Shown here: one piece after another, positions 1 through 57,394 of the stretch
How positions within the stretch are numbered: the stretch's first letter is position 1
Layout: the number at the start of each line of letters is the position of its first letter
Assembly (NCBI GenBank): GCA_000092065.1
Contig: CP000601.1
Strand: one strand, 5' to 3'
From: Ostreococcus lucimarinus
Taxonomy: Eukaryota
DNA length: 64,000 nucleotides
Made by a program: the position numbers and the translations under genes
The notes under the pieces: generated by a model
What the model was told of the DNA's origin: nothing
What the model saw: only the letters and a program-made list of their open reading frames with translations
Database searches by the model: none

Positions 1-2
1 CG

Positions 3-698
3 GGGAGTTACTTGTACGACACGTCGATTCCGCTCAAGCTGCCGTCGTTGTCGGAGAGCGTGCGCGTACCGGCGTACGTGGCACACGATTACATGCAGCG
101 CACGATGCGATTGACGGCATTTTCACGGTCGTGGCCGAGCTTGTTTGTCGCCGCGAAGAACACGCGATCGTCCCTGCACGTCGATCAGTGGCAGGGGCAC
201 TTTTTCATGGCCGTGGTGCGCGGCACGAAGCGATGGACCGTCTTCTCGCGCGAATCGCTCGCGTTTTTACGGCCGAGCTGGTCGCGCGGCACGCTCGATC
301 CCGCGATGCCACCGTTGGAGGAACAAGAAGAGATGGGAATGTTACCGCTCCCGCGTGAATTCGGCGCGCGCCGATGGGACGTCGATCTTGGCCCGGGCGA
401 GGTGCTTTTCGTGCCGGGCGGCTCGCCGCACGCCGTTCGAAACCTCGATTGCACGGTGGCGTTCGCGGGAAACTTCGTCGACGACGTCAATCTGGACCGC
501 GTGTTGGAAGATTTAAAGCTCATGGCCGCCAAAGATCCCGCGTTGATGGAGAGCTACCGAGCGCTCGACGAGGTGGATTTCGACGACGAAGGCGCCGCGC
601 TCGCGGCGGGCGACGACGACGTCCACGCGGGCGCGTTCGACGCGAACGCGCGCGTCGTGCGAGTCGCCGATTATCTCGCGGGGGGGCGACTCGTGTGA
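3..698 (+). CDS. JmjC/cupin-fold 2-oxoglutarate oxygenase-like protein, 5' end outside the window
   Basis: The frame is open from the window edge to the TGA at 696-698. It has the HxD...H metal-ligand pattern (SLHVDQ ... GGSPHAVRNL) followed by AFAGNFVD, typical of JmjC domains. Confidence 0.7.
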   Translation, partial: GSYLYDTSIPLKLPSLSESVRVPAYVAHDYMQRTMRLTAFSRSWPSLFVAAKNTRSSLHVDQWQGHFFMAVVRGTKRWTVFSRESLAFLRPSWSRGTLDPAMPPLEEQEEMGMLPLPREFGARRWDVDLGPGEVLFVPGGSPHAVRNLDCTVAFAGNFVDDVNLDRVLEDLKLMAAKDPALMESYRALDEVDFDDEGAALAAGDDDVHAGAFDANARVVRVADYLAGGRLV

Positions 699-924
699 TG
701 GGATGGATGTCTCGCGTCGCGTCTCGGAGTTCGGGACGAGGGGTTCGCGGCGTCGTGAAAAAGTGACAAAAAAATCAGGGAAGCCGAGCTCCCCCCATGG
801 GGGTGAATCTCACAGCGATAAATTTTTTAAAGTACTATCCGTCACCCCGAAACGACGAAAGTCACAGTGTTGTCGTGTCGCTTTTCCATCACGGACAATC
901 GGGTGTGGGAAAAAGTAAGGTGTG

Positions 925-934
925 ATGTCGACAC
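925..934. promoter_or_regulatory. ZDRE-like palindrome ATGTCGACAC (matches RTGTCGACAY) inside the left direct repeat
   Basis: Exact match to the degenerate 10-mer. It lies 3 nt beyond the 3' end of the tRNA-derived segment. Confidence 0.35.
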
Positions 935-936
935 AT

Positions 937-1036
937 CTCTTCCTGCGGGTTTCGATCCCGCGGCTTCCAGATCTCTATCGGAGCAGCCGTCATATTCGAC
1001 GGAGACTTTTTCCTAACAGTCTGACACTCTACCAGC
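937..1036 (-). pseudogene. 5'-truncated tRNA-Asn(GUU) copy (tRNA positions 15-73 including the 41-nt intron)
   Basis: Identical to 6872-6971 of the intact gene. It lacks the first 14 nt (5' acceptor strand and start of the D arm), so it cannot fold into a cloverleaf. Confidence 0.85.
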
Positions 1037-1066
1037 AAAATTGTTTACAGAGATACCGCGACGAGA

Positions 1067-1443
1067 TTGAAGCAATACAAGGAACTCGATGGGCACCTGA
1101 TGAACGCCTCCGTGTGGGACGAGTATTTGACCCCAGAGATGCTCAGTCTGTATAATCCCGAAACAGACCAATTCGAGGAGCCCAAGCACTGGCTAAATGG
1201 GAAGCGTGTAGGAATTGCAATACTGGCGGATGATGTAAAATCGAGTCCGTTGCTGTCTAACAAAGCCTGGCGCAACCTGTGTATCAAATGCCGCCACCTT
1301 GGATCCTTCCCTGACAGTTCTCCACCAATAGGGTGCTCGATTTTCTGCGCGAGGTCAAGGACGCCGACGCGACGCTCCCAGACAAGTTGAAAGCCGAGGT
1401 ACCGACCATGCTTCAGAAAGGCGTGCGCGCGTATCTGGATTAA
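1067..1443 (+). CDS. Hypothetical small protein, possibly two exons (1067/1100..1234 and 1318..1443)
   Basis: Two ORF segments in different frames join in phase 0 across a GT...AG interval at 1235-1317 (GTAAAA ... CTGACAG), giving ...GIAILADD|FSTNRVLDFLREVKDADATLPDKLKAEVPTMLQKGVRAYLD*. No family was recognised. The first ATG is at 1100. Confidence 0.25.
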
Positions 1444-1666
1444 GCTTCACAAGTACCGTGGTGTGGGTAACATCTGGGACATCTTATCGAAATAATTCAT
1501 CGATGTTCGCCAGGAGATCGAGGAACAGGTGCCGTAAATTACGAAGAGCGTTTCGATTTACAATTTATATGATCCTCTAGCTTGAAAAATAGATCTCCGT
1601 CAGTGGCCGTGGGTGTGTTTGCCACAACTTGATTTGATAGTAATTGACATTTTTTTACCGCTCTCA

Positions 1667-3196
1667 TTAGTGCGCGTGTGCGTGTGAGTCTCCGCCACCG
1701 CCACCGCCTGTGCAATGCTTGTGGTTGAGGAGCACGAGACTGATGGCAACAACGCCGACGATGAAGGTGAGAATGCTCGTCGCGCGAAGACGAGGTGAAG
1801 TGGCGCTCACTGATACTCGGGGCATGCACTCTGCGGCGGCGATTTGCAGATAGACTCCAGCACCGAAGGCGAGCAGCAGTCCATGCCAGAAGTCGTTGTT
1901 ATTTCCCGATCCAACACTAATGAGGACGCCAAGAATGACACTCAAGCCGGAAACGAAGTTTAAAGTCAGCGTCGGCAACGGCGCGAGATCGCCCTGGAAG
2001 GGGTCTACGAGCACCAAGTAGTCAGCAAGCTCTTGAGCGATTTCGTGATAGACGGTCGCGGCGGTGATCGACCATCCCATGGTACTGTCGCAGTTCAGAA
2101 AGCCGAAGCCAATGAAAATACCATCCACTAGGTTGTGCATGAAATCTCCAAGAATGATACCACTTCGAACGCGATACTTGTGTGAGTTACAAGTACAAGT
2201 ATCACAGTCATCTTGAGCGCCTTTGACTGCAAGTTCCGCATCGGTTGTCTTCGCTGTATTTCCAAGAGTTGGGAACACGACAGAGATACCAAAGTCGATG
2301 AAGTAGGCCATGAGAAAGCCGAAGATAGAAGCGGAAGCCCACCATGCGGTCTGCTCTGCCTCATCCGAGCCAGCAGGTTTGATTAAATGCGTGGCTTCGT
2401 AGAACATCAGATAAAACGCAGCCGAAAGAAGTGCGCCGGCGGCAAACGAGTTAATTGTGCAACTCACAGTTTCAGGGTACGCTTTCTGCTTCTTAGCGAT
2501 ACTCGGGATGAGAAAGACCACACCAGAAAGTGTGACGATATTGACGATAATTGCCGCCCCAATGGCGTTGGCCCACGGTTTTGATTTCGATTCGCTCACG
2601 GTGGATGCTTCGGGAAGTGAAGCTTTTGGCACCACGTCATCTCCGTGGAGGTCCTTGAGATAGTGCGCGTCGCGCTCGAACTCGGTGGGAACGTGCTCAG
2701 CGAAGATTGAGATCGCGTCGATGCCAGTCGTATTAATCTTAAACGGCGTCGTGTGCCAGGTGTTGTCAAATTCAAGGTTGACACACCCACTATCAGGTGT
2801 CAAAACACTATCTCGTATCTTAGCCGTCGTACAAGCTCCCCCGATTGCGGTATCACCGCTATCCTCGCGGGCTTCGAGCTCGTCGTGTCCGGCGGCGATT
2901 TCGTCGTAGATGACCATTTTCATGGTATCGGCGGCGTACTTATCGGCCACCTTTTGCGCCTGCCACACGTATTCATTCTCTGGCGTCTCAAAGATTCCAG
3001 CCCATTCGAATGCGTGCGCGCCGGACGCGTGCGCGCCGCGCTGCGCGAGCGCGCTCGCGACGATCGCGATGCCACCACCGAGCGCGCTCGCGCAGCGCAT
3101 CGTTCGCCCTCGTCGTCGCTCGACCGTCCTCGCACCGCGTGCGCGTTCGCGCGGCGGCATCGTCGTCTTCGTGTTCTTCGTGTTTTCGTTCGTCAT
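1667..3196 (-). CDS. ZIP-family (Zrt/Irt-like) divalent metal transporter
   Basis: ZIP signature helices HNLVDGIFIGFGF and HEIAQELADYLVL, several hydrophobic TM segments, a Cys/His-rich loop (DDCDTCTCNSHKY) and a His-rich C-terminus (DSHAHAH). Alternative starts are M13 (3160) and M33 (3100, followed by a signal-peptide-like MRCASALGGGIAIVASALA). Confidence 0.85.
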   Translation of the reverse strand: MTNENTKNTKTTMPPRERARGARTVERRRGRTMRCASALGGGIAIVASALAQRGAHASGAHAFEWAGIFETPENEYVWQAQKVADKYAADTMKMVIYDEIAAGHDELEAREDSGDTAIGGACTTAKIRDSVLTPDSGCVNLEFDNTWHTTPFKINTTGIDAISIFAEHVPTEFERDAHYLKDLHGDDVVPKASLPEASTVSESKSKPWANAIGAAIIVNIVTLSGVVFLIPSIAKKQKAYPETVSCTINSFAAGALLSAAFYLMFYEATHLIKPAGSDEAEQTAWWASASIFGFLMAYFIDFGISVVFPTLGNTAKTTDAELAVKGAQDDCDTCTCNSHKYRVRSGIILGDFMHNLVDGIFIGFGFLNCDSTMGWSITAATVYHEIAQELADYLVLVDPFQGDLAPLPTLTLNFVSGLSVILGVLISVGSGNNNDFWHGLLLAFGAGVYLQIAAAECMPRVSVSATSPRLRATSILTFIVGVVAISLVLLNHKHCTGGGGGGDSHAHAH

Positions 3197-3325
3197 CGTT
3201 TCCGTCGTCGTCGTCGTCTTCGCCGGCGTCGGTAAGTGCGGCTGCGCACAAACTAAAGCGGCATACGAACCGAACCGGCGCGATGGAGGGCGGTCGTTTA
3301 TAAGTCACGACTCGCGAACGACAAA

Positions 3326-3482
3326 ATGTCGACATCCGCCGCAGTGTCGACACATCTCGGTGGTACTTGGATATGTCGAAATATGTCGACATGTGCGTCG
3401 AGACGTTTTTCGTATATAGATGCATCACGGGGTTCAATGCGTACACGCGCGTGGGTAAATATGTCGACATGCGTGTCGACAT
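3326..3482. promoter_or_regulatory. Cluster of five exact RTGTCGACAY palindromes (ZDRE-like) in the bidirectional ZIP/COG0523 promoter
   Basis: Exact matches: ATGTCGACAT 3326-3335, GTGTCGACAC 3344-3353, ATGTCGACAT 3383-3392, ATGTCGACAT 3461-3470, GTGTCGACAT 3473-3482. There is also a 9/10 match, ATGTCGAAAT, at 3373-3382. Confidence 0.6.
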
Positions 3483-3546
3483 GTTTACGACGCGCGTCGC
3501 GACGCGATCCGTGATGGGCTTCGCGGGGCGTCGCGTACGACGATCC

Positions 3547-3589
3547 TCGACACGTGCACGACGCGAATCGTCGACACGTGCACGACGCG
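3547..3589. promoter_or_regulatory. Two copies of the 19-mer TCGACACGTGCACGACGCG (GTCGACAC half-site overlapping a CACGTG G-box) just upstream of the COG0523 start
   Basis: Copies at 3547-3565 and 3571-3589, with a 5-nt spacer. CACGTG occurs at 3551-3556 and 3575-3580. Confidence 0.45.
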
Positions 3590-3658
3590 CGCGCATCGCC
3601 GCACTTCGCGACGCCTCTTCGGCTCGTTCGCGCGCGGAGACGTCGATCGCCGTACATC

Positions 3659-5299
3659 ATGTCCACACCCGCCGCAATCGCCAATCATAATCGATTGCCG
3701 GTGACAACGCTGTGCGGGTTCCTCGGCGCTGGGAAGACGACAACTCTGAAACGCGTGCTCGAAGCTAAGCGAGACGCGAACGGAAAGTTTCGGTGTGCCG
3801 TCGTCGTGAACGACGTCGCGGAGTTGAACATCGACAAAAAATTAATCGATGATTCCGCTTTGCTGCAGAGCGACGAGGTGGTTGCCATGCAGAACGGATG
3901 CGTGTGCTGTTCGTTGAGCGGAGACTTTGTAAAACAAATCGGGGACATGGCCAAGAGTGGCAATTTTGACTACATGATCGTAGAGGCATCAGGAGTGTCG
4001 GAACCGGCGGAAATTGCGAAACTCTTCGCAAATTGTGAGGACGATCACGATCATGAAGCTGCGCACGTTGATGAGCATGAACATTTGAGCACACTGGCGC
4101 GGCTGGATACGTGCGTGACGGTCATCGCTGCAGGTGACTTTCTCGACATGATTGATTCTTTCAGGGCGTCAGCTGTGAACAGGCAGTCTTACTCTCAATT
4201 GTTGGCTGAACAGATAGAGTACGCGAATGTCGTCGTATTGAACAAGGTCGACACTGTCGATGACGAACAACTCGCCGAGATTAAAGCGCAGATACAACTT
4301 CTCAATTCACGTGCTGATATTCTTGAAGCTGTGAACGGCGCGATCGACGTTACGCGAATCGTCAATACAAAACTTTACAAAGAGAATGACTTTGCTGGTT
4401 TCATAACATGGGAACAAGAGATAGAAGCAACATCTGTGAAGTCATGCTGCGCCGGCGCTAGGGACAAAGGTGAGTCTCCATGCTGTAAGCGAGCTCGCAT
4501 GAGAGAAACAGCCTTAAGCGAGGTCACGCTTGCACCAAGTTCTTCCCAAACACGTCACGATAGTCGGTTCGGTATTACGTCTTTCATTTACCGAGCCAGA
4601 AGACCTTTTCATCCCAAACGGTTTTTAGGCTCATTTGTCGAGCGCTTCTTCAGCTCCCTCGAGGCCGATGACCGTGATGAAGAAAAAGATGAAGAGACAC
4701 CAAGTGTAGACTGGAGTGCAGTGAAAGATATTCGAGCGCGACAAGAAGCGATGAAACTCAAGCGCCGTAAAAGGGAAGGTGAAATTGGTGTGCTGCTACG
4801 TTCGAAGGGTGTAACGTGGCTCAGTGATGCCCACGACTTGATAATTGTTTTCAGTCAGGCTGGTAATATTTACTCTCTCGAAGGATCAAGCCGATGGACC
4901 GCGCTGAATAAAAATGCTTGGGTCGGCTCACAGGGGATAAAGCAAGAACTTCGTAAAGACTGGGAGGGGCCTTATGGTGATCGCCGACAAGAACTGGTGT
5001 TCATTGGCAAGGATCTTAAATACGATGAAATTCAATCAACGTTGGACTCTTGCCTCTTGACCGACGAAGAATTCGAAATGGGTTCTGATGGCTGGAGAGC
5101 AGTCATGGGTGATGTCTTTCTAGACGAAGACGACGAAGACGAAGACGACGAAGTCGATGACGAAGACGACGAAGAAATCGACGAAGATTTGGTCGACGAC
5201 GAGGAGATCGAAGAGGAGATCAGGCCGCAACCCACTTCAAAGTCGAAGGCAAAACCAAAGGCAAAGTCGGCGCCCTCTCAAAACGACGGCTTAGTCTGA
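3659..5299 (+). CDS. COG0523/CobW-family GTPase, eukaryotic ZNG1-type putative zinc metallochaperone
   Basis: Walker A GFLGAGKTTT, CxCC metal motif GCVCCS, His-rich stretch EDDHDHEAAHVDEHEH, and a CobW_C-like region (RFGITSFIYRARRPFHP ... GDRRQELVFIGKDL ... LDSCLLTDEE) followed by a long acidic tail. The ATG at 3659 was chosen over the upstream alternative-start ORF (3554). Confidence 0.9.
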   Translation: MSTPAAIANHNRLPVTTLCGFLGAGKTTTLKRVLEAKRDANGKFRCAVVVNDVAELNIDKKLIDDSALLQSDEVVAMQNGCVCCSLSGDFVKQIGDMAKSGNFDYMIVEASGVSEPAEIAKLFANCEDDHDHEAAHVDEHEHLSTLARLDTCVTVIAAGDFLDMIDSFRASAVNRQSYSQLLAEQIEYANVVVLNKVDTVDDEQLAEIKAQIQLLNSRADILEAVNGAIDVTRIVNTKLYKENDFAGFITWEQEIEATSVKSCCAGARDKGESPCCKRARMRETALSEVTLAPSSSQTRHDSRFGITSFIYRARRPFHPKRFLGSFVERFFSSLEADDRDEEKDEETPSVDWSAVKDIRARQEAMKLKRRKREGEIGVLLRSKGVTWLSDAHDLIIVFSQAGNIYSLEGSSRWTALNKNAWVGSQGIKQELRKDWEGPYGDRRQELVFIGKDLKYDEIQSTLDSCLLTDEEFEMGSDGWRAVMGDVFLDEDDEDEDDEVDDEDDEEIDEDLVDDEEIEEEIRPQPTSKSKAKPKAKSAPSQNDGLV

Positions 5300-5761
5300 T
5301 GTCTTTCTAGGTGACACTGAAGCGGAACAGGGTGGAGATGTGGACTCGGGCAACTCTTCCGACATGTAAGCTTGTCCTTTATAGTGAGCCCACACCGATG
5401 TGAGCGCAAGTCATTTTTATGCACACAGTGACATCTTCATCGAATACCAGACGTGGTTGCCAGCGGCTGCGCGCGGTCAAGATAGCGCGACGAAGGTCGG
5501 CAATAAGCTCAAGGACTTCTTCAAGAAGGAAAAGGGCCACAGGGTCCCAATGGAAGAGGACCACCTGAGGCAAGGTAGAGACGAGAAGGGCGTCTATTGG
5601 GAAATTCACCGCGACGGGTGCTTCGAGTGGCTGAAGGACAATGGGTACACAGGGGAGACGGAGCTCGCGCCGGCGGTCGTCTGGTGCTCATACTAATTTT
5701 GTAATTCGTACATTTGCAATATGAAGACTCAACGAGACACCAAAAAGACCATGGTTTGGAT

Positions 5762-5952
5762 CCTGACGAAATGACGAATGACGAACTGTTTTCATAAAGG
5801 TCCACACTGTTGCTTGTCATAGATCTAAAATAAAAATAAACATTAAAATATTTTAACATTTCGTCATTTTCATCATTGGTACACACAAAGTGTCACCGAA
5901 CGACGGGTTGACGAATTTGTGGACGACAAAACAAGTTCGTCATTTCGTCAGG
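5762..5952. repeat. Inverted repeat (CCTGACGAAATGACGAA[TGACGAA]CT / AGTTCGTCATTTCGTCAGG) flanking about 145 bp of very AT-rich spacer
   Basis: Left arm 5762-5787, right arm 5934-5952. The arms are 19 nt complementary once a 7-nt duplication in the left arm is allowed. A further TTCGTCATTTT motif lies near 5866. Confidence 0.4.
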
Positions 5953-6130
5953 TCTCGACGGATCACGAACGTCCAGGTGTGAAATCAGGCGGTTCGGTAT
6001 CTACATTCCGGACCTTGCAGCCCACGCAGCGATACGCGTACCTATGGTCTCTCGGATGTGACTGCAAACCGCAGGAGGAGGCACTTTTGGCAACAATATT
6101 TTCTTAGGGATAGATAGGTAACCAGGACAA

Positions 6131-6628
6131 ATGCCGTCGGGATGCGTGTACGAAATGTTTAGCGATAATGCGAAATGTAACAAAACGTACATCGGATCGA
6201 CGACGGGTTCGCTCAGAGCGCGCCTTGCCTCGCATAAATACGCACGACATCCAATCTTCACGTTTGGCGACGCGGACGTGAGAGTTCTCGAAAAGGACAT
6301 TCCAGCTGGAGAGCTCCATCAACGTAAAGGTGCCTACATGAGAGAGAAGCGTGACGGCTTATTCAACTCCCGAGCTGCTGGACGCAGCCAGAAACACGCG
6401 TGCCGCGAGAACGTGGACGAGAGTCCAGCCTACAGCAGAGCTCAATATACGCCGAAGCGGGACGGCGGCGATGGTAACTACAGACAACTCAATTATTACA
6501 AGCAGCACGCAAAAGGAATACTGCGCAAGACGTGCCTCAAGAATGCCCGAGCGCGCGGCACGCTGCCTTCGAAGCGCAGTCTCGACAAGTATCAATTTAC
6601 GGTAGATGAGTTACGCGGCTTGGCTTGA
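6131..6628 (+). CDS. GIY-YIG nuclease-like protein (homing-endonuclease-like)
   Basis: N-terminal GCVYEMF-x9-YIGSTTGSLRARLASHK matches GIY...YIG...R...H spacing. It is followed by VRVLE (candidate catalytic Glu) and an LFNSRAAG segment. The C-terminal half is basic. The ORF is lower in GC than most of the window. Confidence 0.55.
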   Translation: MPSGCVYEMFSDNAKCNKTYIGSTTGSLRARLASHKYARHPIFTFGDADVRVLEKDIPAGELHQRKGAYMREKRDGLFNSRAAGRSQKHACRENVDESPAYSRAQYTPKRDGGDGNYRQLNYYKQHAKGILRKTCLKNARARGTLPSKRSLDKYQFTVDELRGLA

Positions 6629-6844
6629 CCACTTCACTCACACGATTGGTTCTGGAGAAATCTTACATGCGGTACATCAACGTCGATGTGCGGTTTTATC
6701 ATGTTGGGGTGCCCCAACTCAAAAAAAAAGTTTATTTTTATTACTCATAGCGATAAATTTTTTAAAGTACTATCCGTCACCCCGAAACGACGAAAGTCAC
6801 AGTGTTGTCGTGTCGCTTTTCCATCACGGACAATCGGGTATGGG

Positions 6845-6849
6845 AAAAA
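6845..6849 (-). terminator. Candidate RNA polymerase III terminator (T5 on the minus strand), 22 nt downstream of the tRNA
   Basis: AAAAA on the plus strand is TTTTT on the tRNA strand. It is the first T-run after the discriminator base. Confidence 0.5.
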
Positions 6850-6859
6850 GTAAGGTTTG

Positions 6860-6869
6860 ATGTCGACAC
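6860..6869. promoter_or_regulatory. ZDRE-like palindrome ATGTCGACAC in the right direct repeat, 3 nt downstream of the tRNA 3' end
   Basis: Exact RTGTCGACAY match, duplicated from or to 925-934. Confidence 0.35.
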
Positions 6870-6871
6870 AT

Positions 6872-6985
6872 CTCTTCCTGCGGGTTTCGATCCCGCGGCT
6901 TCCAGATCTCTATCGGAGCAGCCGTCATATTCGACGGAGACTTTTTCCTAACAGTCTGACACTCTACCAGCTGAGTTAAGGAAGA
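6872..6985 (-). tRNA. tRNA-Asn (anticodon GUU) with a 41-nt intron at the canonical 37/38 position
   Basis: Manual cloverleaf: acceptor TCTTCCT/AGGAAGA, D arm ACTC-AGCTGGTA-GAGT, anticodon stem TCAGA/TCTGG, loop CTGTTA|intron|A, variable loop AAGCC, T arm GCGGG-ATCGAAA-CCCGC, discriminator G. The mature length is 73 nt. The T loop has A54/A60, unusual for an elongator tRNA. Confidence 0.8.
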
Positions 6986-57384: not shown

Positions 57385-57394
57385 GTGTCGACAT
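57385..57394. promoter_or_regulatory. Isolated exact RTGTCGACAY match (GTGTCGACAT) in the divergent promoter between the SpoU methyltransferase and the 57461 gene
   Basis: Single copy, so functional relevance is unknown. Confidence 0.2.

Follow-up and report, generated by a model that had tools for sequence, protein, structure and literature searches.

The stretch of DNA analysed here, called the window below, comprises 64,000 nucleotides (nt) of contig CP000601.1 of Ostreococcus lucimarinus (assembly GCA_000092065.1). Near its left end, a truncated tRNA-Asn fragment and an intact tRNA-Asn(GTT) gene enclose a segment that holds a small open reading frame (ORF), a ZIP-family zinc transporter gene, an array of palindromes, a COG0523/CobW GTPase gene, a 98-aa ORF and a GIY-YIG ORF (Table 1). 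The subject of this study is a 10-bp palindrome, ATGTCGACAC, which occurs once in the 3' trailer of the fragment and once in that of the intact gene, and matches RTGTCGACAY exactly in both places. In land plants, RTGTCGACAY is the zinc deficiency response element (ZDRE), which is bound by the F-group bZIP proteins bZIP19 and bZIP23, and ZIP and COG0523 genes are the classic targets of this response. An earlier note on this DNA had left three readings of the trailer palindrome side by side: that it is coincidental, that it makes the adjacent small ORF zinc-responsive, or that one DNA-binding protein marks both the promoter and the ends of the cassette.

The palindrome in the tRNA-Asn trailer and the direct repeat

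On the minus strand, the right copy follows the discriminator G (6872) of the intact tRNA-Asn by an A and a T, and then reads GTGTCGACAT (6869-6860), CAAACCTTAC and TTTTT (6849-6845). The palindrome thus begins at the third base past the discriminator, with the run of five Ts (T5) further on, and this base order bears out the earlier placement of the motif 3 nt past the tRNA 3' end and ahead of the T5. The T5 lies 23 nt beyond the tRNA 3' end and, as a run of at least four Ts after the cloverleaf, has the form of an RNA polymerase (Pol) III terminator. The tRNA itself was recognised by ARAGORN with the intron option as tRNA-Asn(gtt) with a 41-nt intron after position 37; the default ARAGORN run over the window found no tRNA because of this intron.

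Both palindromes lie within a direct repeat of 228 nt with 3 mismatches between its two copies, which means that the palindrome arose once and that its copies are not independent. The earlier note was right that the motif was duplicated together with the repeat, and wrong that the repeat boundaries carry it: the palindrome is internal, 116 nt from the left edge and 102 nt from the right edge, and these coordinates rule it out as the boundary of the repeat. The left tRNA is not complete. It is a fragment running from 1036 to 937 that starts at D-loop G15, so that 14 nt are missing at its 5' end and the A box is only partly there. A permuted or split tRNA was considered for this fragment and ruled out, the missing 5' 14 nt not being found downstream.

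The JmjC and ZIP genes both have their 3' ends towards the left palindrome. The right palindrome has the 3' end of the GIY-YIG ORF (or of the 98-aa ORF) on one side and that of the tRNA on the other; in a cassette-free allele described below, the neighbours of the palindrome are the JmjC gene and the tRNA. Neither of the two is situated in a credible Pol II promoter, the 5' upstream location expected of a ZDRE. The small ORF next to the left copy (1067-1390), which had been proposed to be zinc-responsive, gives no support to that proposal, having no family match in Pfam and not being called as a gene on any related contig. Its GC content at third codon positions (GC3) of 0.60-0.61 is like that of the cassette genes (ZIP 0.62, COG0523 0.52; neighbouring genes are higher, at 0.73-0.81), which is not decisive, and it is invariant across haplotypes, so that variation is uninformative about it.

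Variation of the locus and of its trailer

The comparison material consisted of dozens of metagenome contigs that are 99-100% identical to the window and structurally different from it. Across these alleles, the ZIP–COG0523(–GIY-YIG) unit is present in zero, one or apparently at least two copies, always seamed by the 228-nt repeat. Contig L037 fuses window positions 1-1036 directly to 6972 onward and thus represents a cassette-free allele, in which the JmjC gene is followed by a single repeat copy, its palindrome intact, and then by a complete tRNA-Asn and the downstream gene. The window has one unit; in the repeat-crossing contigs L006 and L020, the end of the cassette is followed by the repeat and then by a further ZIP copy, which implies at least two units in tandem. 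Many contigs are without 5758-6830, that is, the GIY-YIG segment together with 87 nt of the right repeat has been deleted. In L031, L032 and L038, a different cargo with a 487-aa ORF, partly homologous to the intergenic DNA of a sister lineage, is bordered on one side by a repeat copy that has the same G15 boundary and on the other by a tRNA whose trailer is a different one. These structural variants are joined through the repeat, which thus forms the seam of a unit that is unstable and apparently variable in copy number.

The G15 fragment boundary recurs beside two different cargoes.

The palindrome itself is polymorphic. The non-redundant repeat copies number about 35; the palindrome is intact in about 23 of them, is changed to GTGTCAACAT in 8 and to GTGTTGACAT in 4, and the mutated ones (12 of the ~35) are changed at the central CpG, reading GTCAAC or GTTGAC. 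Two wild contigs, k141_647648 (L004) and k141_51272 (L011), contain the whole cassette with both flanking palindromes mutated. In 25 full-length trailers, positions 1-122 hold 7 variable positions, two of which coincide with the C and the G at the centre of the palindrome, with C-to-T and G-to-A changes at its CpG (window 6866-6867 and 931-932) in 3/25 and 8/25 copies, respectively. With two of the seven substituted positions falling inside it, the palindrome shows no sign of constraint.

JGI metagenome contigs were then scanned for the tRNA-Asn 3' end to collect other trailers. Four were found with an identical tRNA 3' end, syntenic loci of relatives included, and all of them are without the motif (Table 1); in the sister lineages, the 128-nt trailer has no detectable homologue. 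The conservation at orthologous positions that would be expected of a ZDRE is thus not seen for the trailer palindrome. The absence of the motif from orthologous tRNA trailers was one part of what the earlier note had named as speaking against a functional element, and it is what these trailers show. An origin of the trailer as a former JmjC 3' flank was considered and ruled out, there being no homology in sister lineages. Viral contigs scanned for the tRNA-Asn 3' end gave no match, leaving a prasinovirus origin of the repeat unsupported.

Table 1. Features of the tRNA-Asn locus and related sites (window coordinates unless a contig is named)
Feature	Position	Strand	Remarks
Left palindrome, ATGTCGACAC	925..934	.	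In trailer of truncated tRNA-Asn fragment
Right palindrome, ATGTCGACAC	6860..6869	.	2-nt spacer from discriminator of intact tRNA-Asn
T5 run (Pol III terminator type)	910..914	-	3' of left palindrome
T5 run (Pol III terminator type)	6845..6849	-	3' of right palindrome
Left repeat T	809..1036	-	128-nt trailer + 3' 100 nt of tRNA-Asn (from D-loop G15, tRNA intron included)
Right repeat T	6744..6971	-	Runs on into 14-nt tRNA 5' end (6972-6985)
5'-truncated tRNA-Asn fragment	937..1036	-	B box kept; first 14 nt missing
Intact tRNA-Asn(GTT)	6872..6985	-	Rfam tRNA, 49 bits; canonical 41/42-nt intron after position 37
ZIP-family zinc transporter gene	1667..3196	-	Pfam Zip, 1.2e-21
Promoter array, five RTGTCGACAY sites	3326..3482	.	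Between ZIP and COG0523; first two (3326, 3344) form the conserved pair
COG0523/CobW G3E GTPase gene	3659..5299	+	Putative zinc metallochaperone; Pfam cobW/CobW_C
Segment missing from many otherwise identical contigs	5758..6830	+	Multi-copy GIY-YIG-like ORF + first 87 nt of right repeat
GIY-YIG ORF, weak	6131-6628		Pfam match below threshold
Only remaining RTGTCGACAY site in window	57385..57394	.	Divergent promoter: SpoU methylase gene / 523-aa ORF of unknown kind
18-nt-spaced palindrome pair	3326/3344; L046 6738/6756; L047 2559/2577; L049 1845/1863
bZIP_2 gene beside ZIP	L047 1835-2530	-
bZIP_2 gene beside ZIP	L048 1640-2335	-
bZIP_2 gene beside ZIP	L046 ~6101-6646	-
bZIP_2 gene beside ZIP	L049 1811-2578	+
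Trailer GACGTTTTCGG	L034		Syntenic with both flanking genes; motif absent
Trailer TTTTTTTATG	L035		Syntenic with downstream gene; motif absent
Trailer GAGGGCCATATTG	L036/L039		Syntenic sister lineage, ~92% identity; motif absent
Trailer GCCATATTATATACC	L031/32/38		Same locus, other cargo; motif absent
100-nt insert in tRNA-Asn	L012 1810-1909		Likewise L013-L016, L021-L025, L027-L033, L038
Sister-lineage inserts, 113 and 111 nt	L039 2548-2660, 2677-2787
87-nt insert in left fragment	L003 1242-1328		Often present in left fragments

Promoter pair, repeated segment and introns of the tRNA

The promoter array behaves differently from the trailers: its five sites are unmutated in 54 of 54 instances, in the same contigs whose trailers vary. 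The first two sites, 18 nt apart upstream of ZIP, are kept in four Ostreococcus lineages, with ZIP orthologues at about 80% identity, and further single palindromes occur at CobW gene starts in other Ostreococcus lineages. Judged from these sequences, the motif is probably a real cis-element elsewhere in Ostreococcus, upstream of ZIP. A second promoter haplotype was also encountered (window 3375-3626 compared with L004 5233-5557), in which sites 3-5 are replaced by about 325 nt of unrelated low-GC DNA and only the conserved pair is retained; in both contigs with a whole cassette (L004 and L011), this haplotype is without both trailer palindromes.

In other Ostreococcus lineages, a bZIP_2 gene (27.1 bits against a threshold of 22.3) adjoins the palindrome pair, and in L046 and L049 it lies between ZIP and CobW, with the 18-nt pair in the shared upstream region. 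Its product, 231-257 aa long (L047, L049), matches only bZIP_2, and its sequence, read by eye, is without the N-terminal Cys/His motifs of F-bZIPs. Relatives of this bZIP were found only among metagenome proteins, none of them in the window or in NCBI/UniRef sources. Castro et al. (2017) found no F-bZIP in O. lucimarinus (PMC5476651). It is possible that the neighbouring bZIP is the regulator of a zinc regulon in a genus reported to be without F-bZIPs, and we put it forward as a candidate.

In the window as a whole, RTGTCGACAY occurs 8 times against 0.54 expected, a count that 0 of 100 shuffles reach. Five of the eight matches make up the promoter array. When the repeat is counted once, two independent sites outside the array are left, the repeat and the site at 57385, and the Poisson probability of at least two is about 0.10. 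The latter site is upstream of two ORFs, at 23 nt from that of a SpoU-family methylase and at 67 nt from the 523-aa ORF; a link to zinc is not evident there.

The part of the cassette with the 98-aa and GIY-YIG ORFs (5427-6746) is a repeated element, which recurs in L040 (13407-14789), L041 and L042. In these other Ostreococcus contigs, the segment is inverted and adjoins a DUF5906/Prim-Pol (primase-helicase type) gene, about 17-44 kb from a contig end and beside a paralogous COG0523 gene with one upstream palindrome; the end of the segment coincides exactly with the edge of the repeat, and these sites have no tRNA fragment. The GIY-YIG protein of the window is identical to two O. lucimarinus CCE9901 entries, and the cluster to which it belongs has 898 members. 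Neither the 509-aa ZIP ORF nor P0034, the paralogous GIY-YIG protein, gave a match in exact look-ups. Pfam detected no integrase or recombinase domain in the cassette, only Zip, cobW/CobW_C and the sub-threshold GIY-YIG.

The body of the tRNA-Asn gene is itself interrupted in relatives. In most wild contigs, the D-loop is split by a 100-nt insert of the form GTAAGT…AACTGAC…CAG, and further inserts are found in a sister lineage and in left fragments. The equivalent positions in the window are 6969/6970 and 946; the window itself is without inserts. All inserts, 87-113 nt in length and in tRNA orientation, start with GTAAGT or GTTAGT, contain an ACTGAC branch motif and end in CAG or TAG, and once each is taken out exactly at GT/AG, what is left is again a tRNA-Asn that has the usual tRNA intron. 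Among the introns of O. lucimarinus outside chromosome 2 that were confirmed by expressed sequence tags, 87% have ACTGAC as their branch motif (PMC2483917). The 87- and 100-nt inserts do not belong to a repeated introner family, which was ruled out by the lack of further copies in the window and of any relation between the two. From their sequences, the inserts inside the tRNA-Asn body appear to be spliceosomal-type introns. O. tauri has only 45 tRNA genes (PMC13578239). A repertoire of this size suggests that tRNA-Asn is single-copy, and if it is, the tRNA would be made from a spliced transcript. To our knowledge, no such tRNA has been described.

Interpretation and comparison with known systems

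We propose that the palindrome of the trailer is a passenger, carried along by a repeat of tDNA origin; this repeat would have come into being as the zinc unit was inserted or duplicated, and would now mediate both gain and loss of the unit. We put the probability of this reading at roughly 0.7. The palindrome would be a lineage-specific stretch of the tRNA-Asn 3' flank, doubled only as part of the 228-nt repeat. The repeat would have been created when a segment was inserted or duplicated at the tRNA-Asn locus. We infer that it now serves as a substrate for unequal or homologous recombination, giving rise to alleles with zero, one and probably at least two units, and that the palindrome has no function of its own: it would be neither held by selection nor needed for the cassette, although it may be bound incidentally by the factor that reads the conserved promoter pair. 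Among the three readings of the earlier note, coincidence is the only one to gain support, from the polymorphic motif and the motif-free trailers. A protein that marks both promoter and cassette ends does not fit the palindrome, which lies within the repeat, occurs in the allele without a cassette and is absent at both ends in two cassette haplotypes.

Several observations weigh against the passenger proposal. In the 128-nt trailer, the two most frequent polymorphisms are those at the central CpG, and its other nine CpGs are invariant; instead of neutral decay, this could reflect local hypermutability, or selection that inactivates a working site. The contigs are not independent samples, and the 12 mutated copies correspond to only two mutational events. 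The contigs that imply tandem units span a repeat, and an assembly error is possible there. The expectation for a perfect 10-mer in one specified 228-nt segment, here near zinc genes, is about 0.002, and the closeness of the palindrome to zinc genes is therefore suggestive of a meaning, in a test that is post hoc. In addition, the 14-mer TGTCGACACATCTC is common to the trailer site (926-939) and promoter site 2 (3345-3358); it is either a coincidence or a relic of an old recombination event. The CTC of this 14-mer in the trailer is the complement of the tRNA 3' end.

Some of these observations would be expected if the trailer palindrome were a working site of the zinc-responsive, probably bZIP-type, factor predicted for the promoter pair, acting as a distal enhancer or boundary at both cassette seams, or coupling zinc status to Pol III termination at tRNA-Asn. 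The consensus match is exact, the zinc genes are close, the 14-mer is shared with promoter site 2, and both CpG transitions strike the palindrome, as they should if it is bound or effective; moreover, the pair upstream of ZIP and the single sites at CobW starts make the motif a credible cis-element in the genus, and the bZIP_2 gene adjoins the pair in other lineages. We nevertheless consider such a role unlikely. Wild haplotypes that carry the cassette have lost both copies, orthologous trailers have no motif, and the palindrome is present where the cassette is not. It is a single site instead of the conserved 18-nt pair and is located between gene 3' ends; no F-bZIP is reported for O. lucimarinus (PMC5476651), and the neighbouring bZIP has no homologue in the window or from NCBI/UniRef. 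A live site immediately 3' of a tRNA-Asn gene that probably has no second copy, and on either seam of an amplifiable zinc-uptake unit, would tie zinc status to Pol III read-out, chromatin insulation or recombination of this unit, which we regard as doubtful; were it true, the repeated loss of the central CpG in wild haplotypes would represent selection to silence the site.

The structure of the locus also invites the thought of an att-like recognition or crossover site for a recombinase or nuclease, such as the GIY-YIG protein, which would have mobilised the cassette into the tRNA-Asn locus. The repeats contain the tRNA 3' part with an intact tRNA at one end, an empty-site allele exists, the same G15 boundary stands beside two different cargoes, and the multi-copy GIY-YIG ORF lies inside, its repeated segment stopping at the repeat edge. 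However, the cassette encodes no integrase or recombinase domain and its GIY-YIG match is under the Pfam threshold; a perfect 10-bp palindrome with a palindromic CG centre gives no directionality and is 100-116 nt off the repeat edges; cassette-bearing haplotypes exist with both sites mutated, and the other genomic copy of the GIY-YIG segment is without such a repeat. We hold this mechanism to be very improbable. We give scarcely any credence to a role at the RNA level, in which a small hairpin abutting the acceptor stem of the tRNA precursor would affect 3' processing or Pol III termination. The minimum free energy fold does give a 5-bp hairpin (GAUGU-GUCG-ACAUC) right after the acceptor stem, but it is weak, includes the discriminator and is not significantly better than shuffles (z = -1.6); nothing comparable is found in other tRNA-Asn trailers, and the CpG variants are tolerated.

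On the passenger reading, the trailer palindrome carries little weight by itself, either as extra evidence for a zinc regulon or as a marker of cassette ends. The ZIP–COG0523 pair of O. lucimarinus is located in an unstable tRNA-Asn locus, with presence/absence and probably copy-number variation in the wild, and such variation of a zinc unit is a plausible route for the adaptation of picophytoplankton to zinc scarcity.

Compared with the land-plant ZDRE, the Ostreococcus motif has the exact 10-bp match and is clustered upstream of ZIP and COG0523 genes. Unlike the ZDRE, the trailer copies are single, unconserved and placed between gene 3' ends; F-bZIPs are reported absent from O. lucimarinus (PMC5476651), and the bZIP of the sister lineages matches only bZIP_2. 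The locus resembles tRNA-targeted integrative elements and islands, in that the cargo is flanked by repeats with the tRNA 3' part, an intact tRNA is present and an empty-site allele exists. It differs from them in being eukaryotic and nuclear, in having no integrase, and in its repeat of 228 nt, which reaches 128 nt past the tRNA; homologous recombination or duplication accounts for the tRNA-repeat structure equally well as tRNA-targeted integration. The yeast CUP1 array is an example of copy-number-variable metal genes amplified between direct repeats. The Ostreococcus locus likewise has a metal-homeostasis unit between near-identical repeats, in zero, one or apparently at least two units, although these copy numbers are inferred from metagenome contigs. 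By pure analogy, one intact tDNA and one B-box fragment flanking the unit recall the tDNA or extra-TFIIIC (B-box) chromatin boundaries of yeast and animals. Taken together, the comparison tells a conserved cis-signature, the 18-nt pair upstream of ZIP, from incidental matches to the motif.

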